A stretch of 4,307 bases of DNA from a virus (Duplodnaviria > Heunggongvirae > Uroviricota > Caudoviricetes), in IMG/VR virus record IMGVR_UViG_2740892423_000017, one strand, 5' to 3'. Positions 2 to 4,307 of the stretch are shown in pieces (the stretch's first letter is position 1; each line of letters opens with the position of its first letter). The notes below the pieces were generated by a model. The model searched no databases and was not told the DNA's origin. It saw only the letters and a program-made list of their open reading frames with translations. The translations under genes and the position numbers were made by a program.

Positions 2-115
2 GTGGAACAAGGAGCACTGACTCCATTTGGTCGTGAAACGCTTGCTGAACTTCACAACAGCTTTATAGCTGAACTGAATGAAAACGGCATGCCAGCGGAA
101 CCAGTGACGCACTGA
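2..115 (+). CDS. 3' end of an upstream gene (partial, last 37 codons), unknown function
   Basis: Frame 2 is open from the window edge to TGA at 113-115 (VEQGALTPFGRETLAELHNSFIAELNENGMPAEPVTH*). Same strand as, and 10 nt upstream of, the next start. GAGG/GGAG (115-123) just after the stop serves as RBS for the ATG at 126. Too short to assign function. Confidence 0.4.
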   Translation: MEQGALTPFGRETLAELHNSFIAELNENGMPAEPVTH

Positions 116-125
116 GGATGGAGCC

Positions 126-467
126 ATGATTACTAAAAATTTCCGACTGAATGCGCTGGCAAATAAGTATGCGTCAGCACTGTATAACCACATTACCTCC
201 ACCAGCGGCGGGGACTATTTCATGATTGATGCGGACGGAGAGGCCGTCCGTGTGGAAATCGTCAATGGAGTAAAAGGCGTTCGCAGCCTGATCGATAGCT
301 ACACACTGGCAGCCATGAAAGTGTTCTACCCGCAGTGGGAAACCGTGGGGATCGAGCTTCTTGATCGTTGCGTCACTAAGGACAGATTGACTGACGTCGG
401 GCGTGAGATATGGCAAAGCATGGTTAATGACATGGGCGCAACTGTAGCGGGAGGTTCTCATGCGTGA
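126..467 (+). CDS. hypothetical small protein (113 aa), first of two small ORFs coupled to the primase-helicase gene
   Basis: ATG at 126 preceded by GAGGATGGAG (115-124) as Shine-Dalgarno. Clean 113-codon frame; its stop overlaps the next start (ATGCGTGA at 460-467). No motif I can recognise. Confidence 0.7.
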   Translation: MITKNFRLNALANKYASALYNHITSTSGGDYFMIDADGEAVRVEIVNGVKGVRSLIDSYTLAAMKVFYPQWETVGIELLDRCVTKDRLTDVGREIWQSMVNDMGATVAGGSHA

Positions 468-831
468 AAATGTAGAAATGGCGCTTAGCTCCGCAATCGG
501 AGAGCAGGTGGCAAAGATTGCTGGTGCTGTGTGGATTCATAACCTTCATTCTACTGGTGAAGAGAAAATGGCAATTCAGACGCCAGAGGGACGCACCATT
601 ACTACATCTCTGAAGCCGTCAGATGTTTGTGATCTGATTTGCGCATTCATGTACCCAGCAATGAGGACTGTCCACGGCGATAAGTGGAAACTTGCGACAA
701 CCGCTGAATTTGATATGTGGCTAAACAATGATGGCATGCTGACTGATTACGGAATAACCAAGTGGCAGATGCTGGTTAGCCATATCGCAAACGCTATAGA
801 CCACGTGGGGTACGGTGATGCGAAACATTGA
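460..831 (+). CDS. hypothetical small protein (123 aa), second small ORF, translationally coupled on both sides
   Basis: ATG at 460 overlaps the upstream stop by 8 nt, with GGGAGG (448-453) as SD. Stop TGA at 829-831 lies 14 nt inside the primase ORF. No recognisable domain. Confidence 0.7.
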   Translation: MRENVEMALSSAIGEQVAKIAGAVWIHNLHSTGEEKMAIQTPEGRTITTSLKPSDVCDLICAFMYPAMRTVHGDKWKLATTAEFDMWLNNDGMLTDYGITKWQMLVSHIANAIDHVGYGDAKH

Positions 832-3274
832 TCTTATCCGTCAGGTTATCAGTGCGTCTGAAAACAACTGGCCTCATGTGCTGGGCTGCCTGAACATAAA
901 TGTCCCTGACTCTCCGCGCCGTCATGCTCCCTGCCCTGCATGTGGTGGAAAAGACCGTTTCAGATTCGACGACAACGGGCGCGGTAGCTTTATCTGCAAC
1001 CAGTGTGGCGCTGGTGACGGGCTGGATTTAATCAAGCGGGTTAACAACTGCGACACCACGGAGGCGGCACAGCTTGCCGCTGACGTGCTGGGTATTGATT
1101 ACCGGGCAGCGCAAACCGACCCGGCGGCAGCGAGCCATAGAAGAGAGCAACTGGAAGCCGACCGCCAGCAGCGTGAGCAGGAGCGCCAGAAACAGGCAGC
1201 AGAGGACGCAGAGCAGCGAAGGGCTACGTTTGCCCATCTGTATGCCGGAATGCGCCAGAGTGCCACACAGGGCGAATCTGATTACCTGCAATCAAAAGGG
1301 CTGACCGGGTTTAACTATCCGGTTATGCCGGATGGTTCGTTATTGCTGGAGCTGGTGGACGAATCCGGCGCAGTGGCAGCAGCGCAAACCATTACACCGC
1401 AGGGAGAGAAGCGACTCCTGACAGGTTCAGCAAAGCGCGGGGCATATCACGCCGTAAACGCGCCAGAATCGCCGCAGAGCGTTTTAATTGCCGAGGGGCT
1501 GGCTACCGCTCTGTCTGTTCACCTGATGCGCCCGGACGCGCTGGCAGTGGCAGCAATTGACGCCGGGAACCTGATCCACGTTGCCGGAGTAATGCGCCGG
1601 AAATACCCGCAGTCGCAAATTATTATCGCCGCAGATAACGACCACCCTACAGCAGCCTCCGAAACCGGAGCCACCAACATCGGGAAGGAGGCCGCAGAGA
1701 AAGCAGCTTTATCCGTGGCTGGCTGGGTATCGCTGCCACCGACTGACAGCAAAGCTGACTGGAACGACTACCACCAGCAACACGGGCTGGAAGTCGCTAC
1801 GGCTGCGATTAACGATTCGATGTACCGGCCGCAGGGGGAATGCGTGAAACCACAACTACAGGCCATTGCTGGCGGTAAATCCCGCCGTAAAGCCGATGTC
1901 GGAGATATTGCACAAATGGCAGCCAGCCAGAAAGCGCGGTTGCTTTCATCTCGATGGGATATGTTGGCGGTTAACCCAGATAGTGGCACTGTTTACTGCT
2001 ACGAATCTGGCGTATGGGTGAAGCTACCAGACAGCGAATTAGAAAGGGTTATGGTGGCAATTTTCGACGAGCACGAAGCCCACTACACCGAAAAGGGGAT
2101 TAAATCGGTTGTCGCAACCATGAAGCTGCAAATACCGGTAATTGGTGAGCGGAGCGGGGATCTGATTGGTTTTGATAACGGCGTTTATGACCTCGCTACG
2201 CAGACGTTTTCCGCCCATTCGCCGGGTAACTGGCTGATGAACCACAATGGGATCACCTACACCCCGCCAGCGCCGGGGGAAAATATTACCACCAGCGCCC
2301 CCAATTTTACCCGTTGGCTGAATCATGCAACGGCTGGCGACCATCATAAGGCCGAGCGTATCAAAGCAGCCTTGTTTATGGTGCTGGCGAAGCGTCACGA
2401 CTGGCAGCTATTCATTGAGATAACTGGCGAGGGCGGCAGTGGGAAATCCGTATTCAGCAGCATAGCCGTATCACTGGCAGGTGAGCACAACACAGCCAGC
2501 GCCAGCATGGGAGCGCTAGACACAGCCAGAGGGCGGGCGCAGCTTGTAGGAAAAAGCCTGATTATCATGCCAGACCAGACCCGCTATGTTGGCGAAGGCG
2601 CAGGGATAAAGGCCATTACAGGCGGCGACCCAGTAGAGATTGATGGTAAGTATGAAAAGCAGTTCACCACCGTGCTAAATGCCGTTGTTCTCGCAACCAA
2701 CAACGAACCAATGACCTTTACCGAGCGCAACGGGGGCATTGCCCGCCGCCGTGTGATATTCCCGTTCGATAATCCGGTATCAGAAGCGGAGAAAGACCCC
2801 GACCTGACAGCGAAGATCTGCCGTGAAATGCCGGTAATTATTCGTCACTTGCTGGCAATGTTTGCCGACCAGAACAAAGCTAAAGCGCTTTTAATCGAGC
2901 AGCGCGATTCCGCAGAGGCGTTGGGCGTTAAGCGCGGGACAGATCCGGTCATAGACATGTGCGCGGCCTTGTATTTTATGAACGAGCCGAAGGGAATGAT
3001 GATGGGGGGAGGAACGTGGGCAGGACAGCCAGAGCCGAGAACTTACCTGTATCACCTTTATTTGGCCTTTATGGAATATCACGGGCTAGGGAAGCCGCTT
3101 TCCGTCAACAAGTTCTCACGGGCGATTAAATCAGCCGCCAGAGAATACAGGGCTAACTACCTGACACGCAGCATTAACGGCAGAGCGCAGACGAACGTTG
3201 GGATCAATGAGTTGGCGGAGGAGTTTATACCGCGAGCATATGGCAGCAGCACCGCCGAAGGGGGTGATGAATAG
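818..3274 (+). CDS. DNA primase-helicase, phage P4 alpha-like (N-terminal Zn-ribbon, TOPRIM primase, D5_N-like region, SF3/P-loop NTPase, C-terminal putative origin-binding region)
   Basis: An 819-codon frame from GTG 815; I prefer ATG 818 (GGGG at 807-810 as SD). Zn-ribbon C-x2-C...C-x2-C (CPACGGKDRFRFDDNGRGSFICNQCG, nt ~932-1006). TOPRIM glutamate in IAEGLATALS (GAG at 1493-1495), resembling the EGYATA primase motif of P4 alpha as I recall it, and acidic cluster IIIAADNDH (~nt 1620-1645). FDNGVYDL motif typical of D5_N/P4-family primase C-terminal domain. Walker A GEGGSGKS (nt 2426-2449) and Walker-B-like LIIMPD. Stop TAG 3272-3274. Confidence 0.93.
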   Translation: MRNIDLIRQVISASENNWPHVLGCLNINVPDSPRRHAPCPACGGKDRFRFDDNGRGSFICNQCGAGDGLDLIKRVNNCDTTEAAQLAADVLGIDYRAAQTDPAAASHRREQLEADRQQREQERQKQAAEDAEQRRATFAHLYAGMRQSATQGESDYLQSKGLTGFNYPVMPDGSLLLELVDESGAVAAAQTITPQGEKRLLTGSAKRGAYHAVNAPESPQSVLIAEGLATALSVHLMRPDALAVAAIDAGNLIHVAGVMRRKYPQSQIIIAADNDHPTAASETGATNIGKEAAEKAALSVAGWVSLPPTDSKADWNDYHQQHGLEVATAAINDSMYRPQGECVKPQLQAIAGGKSRRKADVGDIAQMAASQKARLLSSRWDMLAVNPDSGTVYCYESGVWVKLPDSELERVMVAIFDEHEAHYTEKGIKSVVATMKLQIPVIGERSGDLIGFDNGVYDLATQTFSAHSPGNWLMNHNGITYTPPAPGENITTSAPNFTRWLNHATAGDHHKAERIKAALFMVLAKRHDWQLFIEITGEGGSGKSVFSSIAVSLAGEHNTASASMGALDTARGRAQLVGKSLIIMPDQTRYVGEGAGIKAITGGDPVEIDGKYEKQFTTVLNAVVLATNNEPMTFTERNGGIARRRVIFPFDNPVSEAEKDPDLTAKICREMPVIIRHLLAMFADQNKAKALLIEQRDSAEALGVKRGTDPVIDMCAALYFMNEPKGMMMGGGTWAGQPEPRTYLYHLYLAFMEYHGLGKPLSVNKFSRAIKSAAREYRANYLTRSINGRAQTNVGINELAEEFIPRAYGSSTAEGGDE

Positions 3275-3287
3275 TTTACCCCTGATT

Positions 3288-3306
3288 TATCCCTACCTAT
3301 CCCTAC
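3288..3306. repeat. iteron cluster 1: two direct copies of TATCCCTAC (3288-3296, 3298-3306)
   Basis: Direct reading: ttatccctacctatccctac, copies spaced 10 bp. Confidence 0.8.
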
Positions 3307-3346
3307 AAAGTCATTTAAGGCCAGTAATGACGGGGCTTGTAGACTG

Positions 3347-3392
3347 GTAGGGATATATATATTTATCCCTACATATCCCTACATATCCCTAC
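3347..3392. repeat. iteron cluster 2: inverted copy GTAGGGAT (3347-3354), 10-bp AT-only spacer (3355-3364), then three direct copies of ATATCCCTAC (to 3392) at 10-bp phasing
   Basis: Direct reading: GTAGGGAT-atatatattt-ATCCCTAC forms a perfect 8-bp inverted repeat around a pure A/T spacer, a plausible DNA-unwinding element. It is followed by ATATCCCTAC ATATCCCTAC. Confidence 0.8.
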
Positions 3393-3430
3393 TAAACAAG
3401 AAGCCACGCATAACCGTTTTTTGGTATTTG

Positions 3431-3459
3431 GTAGGGATAGGTAGGGATAAGTAGGGGTA
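3431..3459. repeat. iteron cluster 3: three reverse-orientation copies GTAGGGATA, GTAGGGATA, GTAGGGGTA at 10-bp phasing
   Basis: Direct reading: gtagggatag gtagggataa gtaggggtag. A degenerate forward copy (tgCCCTAC, 3469-3476) follows after an A-rich spacer. Confidence 0.8.
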
Positions 3460-3515
3460 GAAAAACAATGCCCTACCAGCCTGAAAGCCGCGCCACATAT
3501 GGGTTTTATCGATTG

Positions 3516-3533
3516 GTAGGGATTGGTAGGGAT
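3516..3533. repeat. iteron cluster 4: two reverse-orientation copies of TTGGTAGGGAT at 10-bp phasing
   Basis: Direct reading: gattggtagggattggtagggata. Lies about 35 bp upstream of the next ORF, so it may overlap that gene's promoter. Confidence 0.75.
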
Positions 3534-3565
3534 ATTACACCCCCAAAAAGATTCACAGGGGGGGT

Positions 3566-3775
3566 ATGATTCAGCTAAAGGGCGAAAAAATGAACGAACA
3601 TCATAAAAAGCAGATCGAAGTTGTTAGAGAGATTGAAGCGCAGGGGTTCACCGCGCAGGAGGCGGCGGCCTTGTTACTGGCTGGCGAATTATCCCGACTA
3701 AATGACAGCATGGACTACCTGAAACGAGCCGCTGGGAATATTGACGACACGTTATCAAGAATGGAGTGCGCTTAA
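3566..3775 (+). CDS. hypothetical small protein (69 aa from ATG 3566; 61 aa if translation starts at ATG 3590), predicted mostly helical, translationally coupled to the downstream SSB-like gene
   Basis: ATG 3566 sits 1 nt after a G7 run, which is poor SD spacing. The in-frame ATG at 3590 has AAGGG (3578-3582) 7 nt upstream and is the more likely start. Stop TAA 3773-3775 overlaps the next ATG (TAATG). No recognisable motif; the stretch FTAQEAAALLLAGELSRL could be a DNA-binding helix, but that is speculative. Confidence 0.6.
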   Translation: MIQLKGEKMNEHHKKQIEVVREIEAQGFTAQEAAALLLAGELSRLNDSMDYLKRAAGNIDDTLSRMECA

Positions 3776-4209
3776 TGACAGCACAAATTTCAGCATACGG
3801 GCGGCTGGTGGACGAGCCGCAGGTAAAACAGACCAGCAAAGGCACAAGCATGACGCTGGCACGCATGGCGGTATCAGTGCCGTGCCATAACGCAGACGAC
3901 GGGCAGGCGACGCTATGGCTTGCCGTAACTGCCTTTGGCAGACAGGCCGACGCACTGGCAAAGCACCACAAAGGCGACCTTGTGAGCGTGGCGGGTAACA
4001 TGCAGGTGAACCAGTGGACAGGCCAGAACGGCGAAACGCGGCAGGGCTGGCAGGTTATCGCAGACAGCGTAATCAGTGCGCGAACGGTGCGACAGGGAGG
4101 CAAAAATAGCCAGCGGGGACAGGCGACGGACGCGCTGAGACGTGCGCAGCAGTCAACCCGTGATGAATACGACCAGCGCCCACCATTCGACGATGAAGCG
4201 CCATTCTGA
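3775..4209 (+). CDS. ssb: single-stranded DNA-binding protein (SSB-like OB-fold protein, 144 aa) with acidic C-terminal tip ...FDDEAPF
   Basis: ATG 3775 overlaps the upstream stop, with GGAG (3763-3766) 8 nt upstream; the ORF track's 3766 start is a GTG 9 nt further upstream in the same frame. The translation aligns by eye to E. coli SSB: [19 protein letters not shown] vs [40 protein letters not shown] vs [38 protein letters not shown] vs LRTRKWTDQSGQDRY. The tail PPFDDEAPF matches the SSB tip MDFDDDIPF. The linker is much shorter than in E. coli SSB. Confidence 0.85.
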   Translation: [144 protein letters not shown]

Positions 4210-4219
4210 GGGGGGGGGG
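4210..4219. repeat. G10 homopolymer tract in the 15-nt gap between the SSB stop and the next ATG
   Basis: Direct reading: tga-GGGGGGGGGG-tgaac-ATG. It is positioned where the Shine-Dalgarno of the downstream gene should be. Confidence 0.9.
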
Positions 4220-4224
4220 TGAAC

Positions 4225-4307
4225 ATGGTAAACGACAGCAAAGCTGAGGATCTGGAAGCAAAAGGGCTGTACCGACGCGCCGCCGCGCGATGGATGGAAG
4301 TCATGCT
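4225..4307 (+). CDS. 5' end of a gene running off the window (27 codons visible); possible PerC-family small transcriptional regulator
   Basis: ATG 4225 lies 5 nt after the G-run and the frame is open to the window end: MVNDSKAEDLEAKGLYRRAAARWMEVM. The segment AE-LE--GL-RRAA-RW--V matches what I remember as the conserved N-terminal signature of PerC/Pch-like regulators. This is recall, not a search result. Confidence 0.45.
   Translation, partial: MVNDSKAEDLEAKGLYRRAAARWMEVM

Follow-up and report, generated by a model that had tools for sequence, protein, structure and literature searches.

Two small open reading frames (ORFs), which we call ORF1 and ORF2, immediately precede the primase-helicase gene in a 4,307-nucleotide stretch of Caudoviricetes DNA (IMG/VR record IMGVR_UViG_2740892423_000017, hereafter the window), and we find that they are diverged members of one paralogous family, carried, as judged by sequence and gene content, on a phage-inducible chromosomal island (PICI) of the EcCIMP1 type. 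Taken as a whole, our reading is that the pair is coupled in translation to the primase of such an island and that its products would act as non-enzymatic accessory factors which bind other proteins. The structural and genomic parts of this reading are near-certain, the mechanistic step is doubtful, and for the composite we would put the chances somewhat short of even. An earlier reading, made from the letters of the window alone (the sequence-only reading), had likened the pair, by position, to epsilon and orf151 of phage P4. The paralogy of ORF1 and ORF2, which that reading missed, is new, as are the slot that they share before the primase, the assignment to the EcCIMP1 family and the mosaic structure of the window.

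The homology of ORF1 and ORF2 is established by several observations together, the direct pairwise signal alone being modest. BLASTP aligns the two proteins over 97 amino acids with 23% identity (E 7e-4), and hhalign aligns the profiles of the two families collinearly over 91 columns with a score of 29.4, compared with 12.6 +/- 2.6 (maximum 20.8) for 100 column shuffles and 13.5 for a reversed profile. The families are bridged by a protein, P0142, which was found with the ORF2 profile in an exhaustive hidden Markov model (HMM) search (E 1.9e-22) and has the C-terminal YGDA.H of the ORF2 family, and which also matches both ORF1 (BLASTP E 4e-12) and the ORF1 profile (96% probability, E 2.6e-9). 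In a joint alignment, four positions are invariant (L59, W76, G98 and W102 in ORF2 numbering) and the two families have in common the motif L-[ST]-[DE]-x-G-x-x-x-W. AlphaFold2 (AF2) models, with a predicted local distance difference test (pLDDT) of 91.4 and a predicted template-modelling score (pTM) of 0.84 for ORF1 and corresponding values of 88.9 and 0.79 for ORF2, place the same elements in the same order in both proteins: a long N-terminal helix, a β-hairpin and two or three further helices. It is well supported that the two ORFs belong to one paralogous family of small (~110-130 amino acids), mildly acidic proteins, predicted to share this helix, hairpin and helices layout.

Their conservation indicates that both ORFs are genes rather than chance reading frames. 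Homologues of ORF1 form 133 clusters across Enterobacterales and those of ORF2 form 21, and a joint profile collects 386 clusters, among the best 120 of which the only names are 'hypothetical protein' or 'Prophage protein' and no Pfam domain is found. Both genes are under purifying selection, with a ratio of non-synonymous to synonymous substitution rates (dN/dS) of about 0.2; the median for ORF1 is 0.20 (298 locus pairs), and comparison of ORF2 copies with that in the window gives 0.12-0.21 for pairs with unsaturated dS. Residues 2-13 of ORF1 (ITKNFRLNALAN, then.Y), which form the N-terminal helix, show essentially no variation from Erwinia, Pantoea and Yersinia to Escherichia. Synonymous sites in the same stretch are free to vary, with codon entropies of ~1-1.9 bits, which places the constraint on the peptide and rules out a cause at the level of DNA or RNA; an Rfam scan of the window likewise gave no credible match. 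The C-terminal tail of ORF1 is disordered, and its codons contain the Shine–Dalgarno (SD) sequence of the next gene; the C-terminus of ORF2 is conserved (ID.VGYGDAKH).

The layout described in the sequence-only reading, two ORFs of 113 and 123 amino acids with overlaps of 8 and 14 nt, was reproduced (Table 1). The sequence of the 8-nt overlap between ORF1 and ORF2 is ATGCGTGA. At the second junction, ORF2 overlaps the primase gene by 14 nt when the ATG at 818 is taken as the start, the equivalent of which is annotated in RefSeq for the relatives, and by 17 nt when the GTG at 815 is taken. The candidate SD sequence of ORF1 is GAGG at 115-118; that of ORF2 is strong, lying 5 nt ahead of its ATG within the final codons of ORF1, and that of the primase is weak, consisting of a G-rich stretch alone. 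A pattern scan of the + strand from 1 to 900 found neither promoter-like nor terminator-like sites, which fits a single polycistronic message. The earlier claim that the pair is co-expressed with the primase agrees with the overlapping geometry and with this lack of intervening sites; co-expression and co-translation themselves are a reasonable inference from how the genes are arranged. ORF2 in particular, with its 14-nt overlap and no promoter-like or terminator-like site between it and the primase-helicase gene, has the upstream and, by this geometry, co-transcribed position of the Cnr type.

Table 1. Features of the window discussed in the text
Feature	Coordinates	Strand	Remarks
3' end of upstream ~200-aa gene (phrog_1515)	2..115	+	last 37 codons; fragment matches phrog_1515 at E 4.7e-05
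ORF1	ATG 126 to TGA 467	+	113 aa, pI 5.6; phrog_37628 member
ORF1/ORF2 junction	449..467	+	SD GGGAGG 449-454, ORF2 ATG 460, ORF1 stop 465-467
ORF2	ATG 460 to TGA 831	+	123 aa, pI 5.6; diverged ORF1 paralogue
ORF2/primase junction	805..831	+	G-rich stretch 807-810, primase ATG 818, ORF2 stop 829-831
Primase-helicase	818..3274	+	818 aa; Zn-ribbon, Toprim, D5_N, DUF5906, Pox_D5; mosaic
Putative replication origin	3285..3535		iteron array just after primase stop

Such junctions raise the question of whether the peptides matter at all. If ORF1 and ORF2 were mere leader cistrons, their translation would serve to bring ribosomes to the weak primase start and the products would be functionless; the weak G-rich SD sequence and the 14-nt overlap at the primase start, as well as the SD sequence encoded in the tail of ORF1, are in keeping with this. 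We nevertheless consider it very improbable, since strong purifying selection at the amino acid level contradicts a pure leader role. Moreover, the N-terminal peptide of ORF1 is invariant despite its varying synonymous sites, both proteins have confident and compact predicted folds, and ORF1 is kept at loci where no primase follows.

The searches for a function agree with the earlier statement that neither ORF has a recognisable motif: Pfam, NCBIfam and PADLOC returned nothing above noise for either protein. In PHROGs, ORF1 matches phrog_37628, a family of unknown function, over essentially its full length (residues 1-109 of 113, E 6.5e-50), and ORF2 has no match. A helix-turn-helix (HTH) or catalytic signature was found in neither protein, and neither matches a DNA-binding or enzymatic family. 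A PDB sequence search with ORF1 gave no match, and the AF2 folds have no meaningful neighbour among solved or viral predicted structures (Foldseek against BFVD gave nothing at E<0.4). The remote-homology and structure-prediction searches that the sequence-only reading had proposed thus led to no characterised family, and the accessory role in replication that it had listed among its possibilities is a live option.

A single set of matches to ORF2 called for closer scrutiny. In a library of 1.8 billion proteins the ORF2 profile matches polyubiquitins with E down to 6e-14, and these are also its sole PDB sequence matches. A single ubiquitin unit scores 12.5 bits against the profile, a library-wide E of ~1e4, and the apparent significance arises because each identical repeat adds ~8 bits over four to eight repeats. 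A relationship to ubiquitin or the β-grasp fold was rejected, given the weak single-unit match and a predicted ORF2 fold that is not β-grasp, and chance is the best account of the local similarity (T-x-x-G-[KR]-T-[IV]-x-x-x-[LV]-x-PSD and DG-x-L-[ST]-DY-x-I-x-K). We note as a general trap of searches in representative libraries or the PDB that repeat proteins can reach E values down to ~1e-14 to 1e-19 against the profile of a small protein.

Sequence comparison identifies the window as part of an EcCIMP1-type PICI and not of a P4-type satellite. In EcCIMP1 itself (NZ_CP139039, E. coli MP1), homologues of ORF1 and ORF2 with 98% protein identity stand directly before the primase; these two genes, SID94_RS17365 and SID94_RS17360, were left as hypothetical proteins in the study of the island (PMC11773190; Pick, Stadel & Raivio 2025), according to which its excision, circularisation and transfer need AlpA, its own integrase and the P22-like helper phage Kapi1. 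Full-length relatives of the window in E. coli are islands of 12-20 kb beside yicC or a tRNA-Thr gene. Their left arm consists of genes for an integrase, a hypothetical protein, an AlpA-family HTH protein (PF05930), a 143-aa protein, an AntA/AntB antirepressor-family protein, a DUF4222 protein and a Phage_ASH-family protein, followed by three small genes, the 200-aa gene (phrog_1515), ORF1, ORF2 (present or absent) and the primase. The relatives that share sequence with the window have the composition of an EcCIMP1-type PICI, namely int, AlpA and a primase-helicase with an adjacent origin, and are without capsid or lysis genes; the window itself contains the primase and iteron array of this set, and the int and AlpA genes lie outside it. 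The combination that marks P4-like elements in the broad sense, an alpha-type primase-helicase and an AlpA-family regulator, is also found (D5_N, Pox_D5 and DUF5906 in the window, AlpA in the relatives), and the primase of close relatives is annotated as 'phage/plasmid primase, P4 family'. The annotation of six full-length relatives contains no psu, sid or delta gene, a negative for which no profile search was made. The P4/P2-type setting assumed in the sequence-only reading gives way, in our analysis, to an EcCIMP1-type island for which the known helper is P22-like. For EcCIMP1 with Kapi1, experiments showed that excision, replication and transfer depend on the helper (PMC11773190); the element from which the window comes may share this dependence.

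The gene order of EcCIMP1 (200-aa gene, ORF1, ORF2, primase) is the same in the window, whereas the remainder of the primase-helicase gene, the origin and the window's right arm, with genes for a single-stranded DNA-binding protein (SSB) and a PerC-like protein, are of another lineage; the counterparts in EcCIMP1 are a TOPRIM+DUF927 protein and P22-like ejection-protein genes. From nucleotide 1 to ~900, which covers ORF1, ORF2 and the first ~28 codons of the primase, the window is ~100% identical in nucleotide sequence to an EcCIMP1-type island (L003). From ~918 onwards its primase is 96-99% identical to that of the other lineage (L001), which is without ORF2 and has SSB in its right arm. The alignments place a recombination breakpoint at ~900-917 of the window, about 85-100 nt into the primase gene, and consequently the first ~28 primase codons travel with ORF2. 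The right arm is a swappable module, occupied in the lineage of the window by SSB and the PerC-like gene. In many EcCIMP1-type islands, P22 ejection/injection homologues (DUF2824, P22_gp7, Inj_translocase and gp16/SLT) lie downstream of the primase (L003 17897-23065; also L004, L006 and L055).

The setting of ORF1-type genes was studied at 51 loci, of which 42 came from a scan of one genome per species, six from E. coli, one from another Escherichia and two from phage records. The primase-helicase gene follows directly at 23 of these loci, and 21 of the 23 junctions are a conserved 8-nt overlap (ATGCGTAA); at five loci, all in Escherichia, ORF2 and then the primase follow, at 22 there are small non-primase genes, and at one the contig ends. 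ORF2-type genes also occur without ORF1, directly before the primase with the same 14-nt overlap as in the window in Citrobacter and Kluyvera, and with a 58-nt gap before the primase in Serratia. One metagenomic contig has, in order, a 115-aa gene of the size of ORF1 (not compared with ORF1), a 73-aa gene, an ORF2-type gene and the start of the primase, the last two again overlapping by 14 nt. The sole ORF2-type gene with no primase after it is that of the bridging protein P0142, in island L058, where a P22 gp7-family gene follows; on our reading this locus is a deletion remnant, and in every intact locus examined the ORF2-type gene adjoins the primase. By this distribution, ORF1-type and ORF2-type genes are alternative or additive occupants of a single slot before the primase, with the ORF2 type strictly linked to the primase.

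The start of ORF2 hints at how the tandem arrangement arose. In the window, ORF2 opens with ATG CGT (MRE...), which are also the first two codons of the primase (MRN...) in elements where ORF1 directly precedes the primase, and ORF2-type proteins elsewhere have N-termini that are longer and different. For these reasons we infer that the tandem E. coli layout arose from an element in which ORF1 directly preceded the primase, by in-frame insertion of ORF2 at the start codon of the primase gene. In E. coli genomes, copies of ORF2 with an identity of at least 99% precede three types of primase-helicase (TOPRIM+DUF927, DUF5906 and Zn-ribbon). Of 5,426 complete genomes, 478 have ORF2 and 346 have ORF1; the closest full-length relatives of the window lack ORF2. 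We also considered a co-adapted primase N-terminus specific to ORF2 and rejected it, as the N-terminal sequences of the primases show no pattern beyond linkage.

The range of ORF1 is wider. The 22 loci with no primase after ORF1 are from Yersinia, Xenorhabdus, Rahnella, Trabulsiella, Kosakonia and others; in these and in phages EKP1 and phi467, the ORF1-type gene is preceded by a 200-aa phrog_1515 gene or by a gene with an ORF6N, Bro-N or Rha domain, and small genes follow it. Downstream of ORF1, several of the primase-less loci have more small genes, a KilA-N gene (L027) and then an AlpA-like or PrtN-like gene, and both phages have an integrase gene. EKP1 is a 38.9-kb phage with tail and baseplate genes, and its Toprim primase is in the opposite operon; in both phages the phrog_37628 member follows an ORF6N-domain gene and, unlike ORF1 of the window, is not beside a primase. 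The commonest and most constant neighbour of ORF1 is the phrog_1515 homologue, which is directly upstream at 34 of the 51 loci, and the full-length 200-aa protein of L003 matches phrog_1515 with E 2.2e-47.

Two observations on these loci are made in passing. Among L016, L017 and L054, ORF1-primase loci typical of Enterobacterales come from assemblies labelled Pseudomonas lundensis and Chryseobacterium sp., and there is also an ORF1 homologue in a phage named for another host, 'Elizabethkingia phage EKP1'; contamination or mis-assignment is a more probable source of these labels than a host range of that breadth. Upstream of the ORF1-type gene in Yersinia and Xenorhabdus loci are proteins of ~190 amino acids (L020 6075-6671; L025 6436-6990) that match phrog_3007, 'RusA-like Holliday junction resolvase', as well as phrog_947, 'DNA polymerase processivity factor' (E 2.8e-8), and in which motifs like those of the β-clamp can be seen by eye (YL.GV...ATDG). 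The 'RusA-like' label of phrog_3007 may be wrong.

The wide range of ORF1 is one ground for the main rival to our reading, in which the two proteins would be effectors of host takeover or counter-defence, small early proteins that neutralise a conserved host protein of the replisome, of recombination and repair or of immunity, their adjacency to the primase being incidental. ORF1 homologues stand in the early-left operons of temperate phages and in primase-less islands, beside ORF6N, Bro-N, Rha or KilA-N genes and upstream of xis/int; the N-terminal helix is invariant from Erwinia to Escherichia across element backgrounds, which fits a conserved host target, and both proteins are small, acidic and without an enzymatic signature. 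Yet neither PADLOC nor any named PHROG or Pfam family, whether of anti-defence proteins or others, matches them, intact ORF2-type loci are always directly before the primase, and the 8-nt and 14-nt primase junctions are kept across genera. We judge this explanation unlikely on balance while regarding it as the one that competes most seriously with ours.

Comparison with P4 bears on the proposal made in the sequence-only reading, that the pair occupies the position of epsilon/orf151 and might derepress, or interfere with, a helper phage. The left operon of P4 has the order vis (orf88, AlpA-like), cI-region ORF (Ash), epsilon, orf151, cnr (orf106) and alpha. A coarse collinearity with the left arm of the island (AlpA family, Ash family, small ORFs, primase) is defensible, and ORF1 and ORF2 occupy the stretch that in P4 contains epsilon, orf151 and cnr; to that extent the positional argument stood, but the gene directly before alpha is cnr and not epsilon. 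In P4-like elements the interval between epsilon and alpha is reported to have cnr in 90%, together with a 75-aa gene of unknown function (PMC8628076). Homology to P4 epsilon, orf151, Cnr, the cI-region ORF and Vis was rejected, all BLASTP and hhalign comparisons being non-significant. P4 epsilon belongs to PF25738, the 'Derepression protein family' (9e-51), and P4 Cnr to PF17345, DUF5375 (2.9e-63); ORF1 and ORF2 have no PF25738 match in a Pfam scan at E<=1, give E>=0.19 and a probability of <=0.3% against epsilon in BLASTP and hhalign, and have no Pfam match to DUF5375, with hhalign probabilities of 0.2-0.3% in the comparison with Cnr. What the pair has in common with epsilon and orf151 is the coarse interval from the Ash-family ORF to the primase, whereas the helper type and the element family are different.

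The Ash gene itself requires a comment. Phage_ASH (PF10554) served as the marker for 'epsilon' in one survey (PMC8628076). We could not use it in that sense, since PF10554 matches the ORF over the P4 cI region (L052 8168-8584) and current Pfam places epsilon in PF25738; counts of 'epsilon' in surveys of P4-like elements may track the Ash ORF.

An epsilon-like role, in which ORF1 or ORF2 would inactivate the repressor of a helper prophage or hinder its development, finds some encouragement in their place between the Ash-family gene and the primase, as with P4 epsilon, orf151 and cnr, and in the finding that EcCIMP1, through some gene of its own, adds to superinfection immunity against Kapi1 (PMC11773190). 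Apart from the lack of similarity to epsilon and PF25738, however, the island has in its AntA/AntB-family gene an obvious antirepressor candidate of its own. Deletion of EcCIMP1 left the CI-lux expression and the induced titre of Kapi1 unchanged (PMC11773190), so that an absence of effect on helper induction, named in advance by the sequence-only reading as an outcome that would count against it, has been published for this helper and contradicts the antirepressor idea indirectly. The AlpA-dependent cycle of EcCIMP1 comes on only after induction of the helper (PMC11773190), when derepression would be too late, and the family is also found in bona fide temperate phages. We regard an epsilon-like role as improbable and favour it least among the substantive options.

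We return to the reading preferred here, that of accessory factors coupled to the primase. ORF1 and ORF2 lie at the end of the early operon, which in EcCIMP1 is controlled by AlpA; they would be made on one message with the primase-helicase through the overlapping stop and start codons, and would act by binding protein, not DNA, and without enzymatic activity. For the ORF2 branch, the most likely partner is the primase-helicase of the same island, whose activity it would modulate. Because ORF2 is coupled to the primase and yet tolerates exchange of the helicase and origin, it would be directed at the conserved N-terminal Zn-ribbon/Toprim half of the primase, or else at host machinery. The ORF1 branch appears older and more general, as it also occurs in early operons of temperate phages with no neighbouring primase; the invariant helix and the wide genomic range together point to a conserved target, not necessarily the island primase, on which the N-terminal helix would probably dock, whether in the host or in replication or recombination machinery.

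The nearest functional analogy for ORF2, offered with low confidence and by position only, is Cnr (orf106, DUF5375) of P4, of which it would be a positional analogue and not a homologue. Both are small proteins encoded directly before the primase-helicase gene in a satellite operon, with the difference that the stop of P4 cnr and the start of alpha do not overlap. In P4, Cnr acts by binding alpha, as the older literature on this phage describes. A broader proposal is that the family constitutes an unrecognised class of partner proteins that control primase-helicases of the P4-alpha/D5/DUF927 type, or bring the host replisome to them, in the satellites and the temperate phages of Enterobacterales, with the ORF2 branch as a dedicated regulator of replication initiation and the ORF1 branch as a docking adaptor acting through its invariant helix; this we put forward as a speculation that is more probably wrong than right.

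Several points weigh against our reading. Neighbouring and translationally coupled genes are frequent in phage operons, an arrangement from which contact between the products does not of itself follow, and we have low confidence in a primase-binding role for ORF1 and ORF2 drawn from gene context. The many loci at which non-primase genes follow ORF1, and the location of the EKP1 primase, mean that ORF1 cannot be an obligate cofactor of a primase. As to the paralogy, the direct match between the ORF1 and ORF2 profiles is modest (hhalign probability 30-47%), and no ORF1-family protein was recovered when the whole library was searched with HMMER and the ORF2 profile, so that the relationship rests on the bridge sequence and on structure.

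As it stands, the pair is an ordinary set of accessory genes in a known kind of element. The gain for annotation is that two 'hypothetical proteins' can be assigned to a common paralogous family with a defined slot in a defined type of element. Should a role in modulating satellite replication be borne out, the family would fill a gap in the life cycle of EcCIMP1-type islands and be a second, unrelated instance of the Cnr-type solution known from P4. EcCIMP1-type islands are common in E. coli and some carry PerC-like virulence regulators, and a tractable experimental system exists in E. coli MP1, EcCIMP1 and Kapi1.

The region downstream of the primase contains the remaining features of the window. 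The iteron array comprises ~11 copies of a 9-mer (TATCCCTAC/GTAGGGATA) with a 10-bp spacing and in both orientations, flanking an AT-rich core at ~3352-3365; from its position after the primase-helicase gene it is probably the replication origin of the island. The Rfam matches in the array are meaningless ones of microRNA models to the palindrome only. Beyond it, a 69-aa ORF (3566-3775) with no family match is coupled through TAATG to a 144-aa SSB-family gene (3775-4209; PF00436, E 3.7e-17), and L001 and L002 have a 100-aa hypothetical gene before SSB in the position of this ORF. The gene at 4225-4307 is represented by its first 83 nt, which share 83% identity with the gene for the PerC-family regulator in EcCIMP1-type islands. 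A homopolymer of ten G residues at 4210-4219 lies 5 nt ahead of its ATG, and the relatives scanned have no G-run of 7 or more at the matching junction; either a translation signal prone to slippage or an artefact of sequencing could account for the run.

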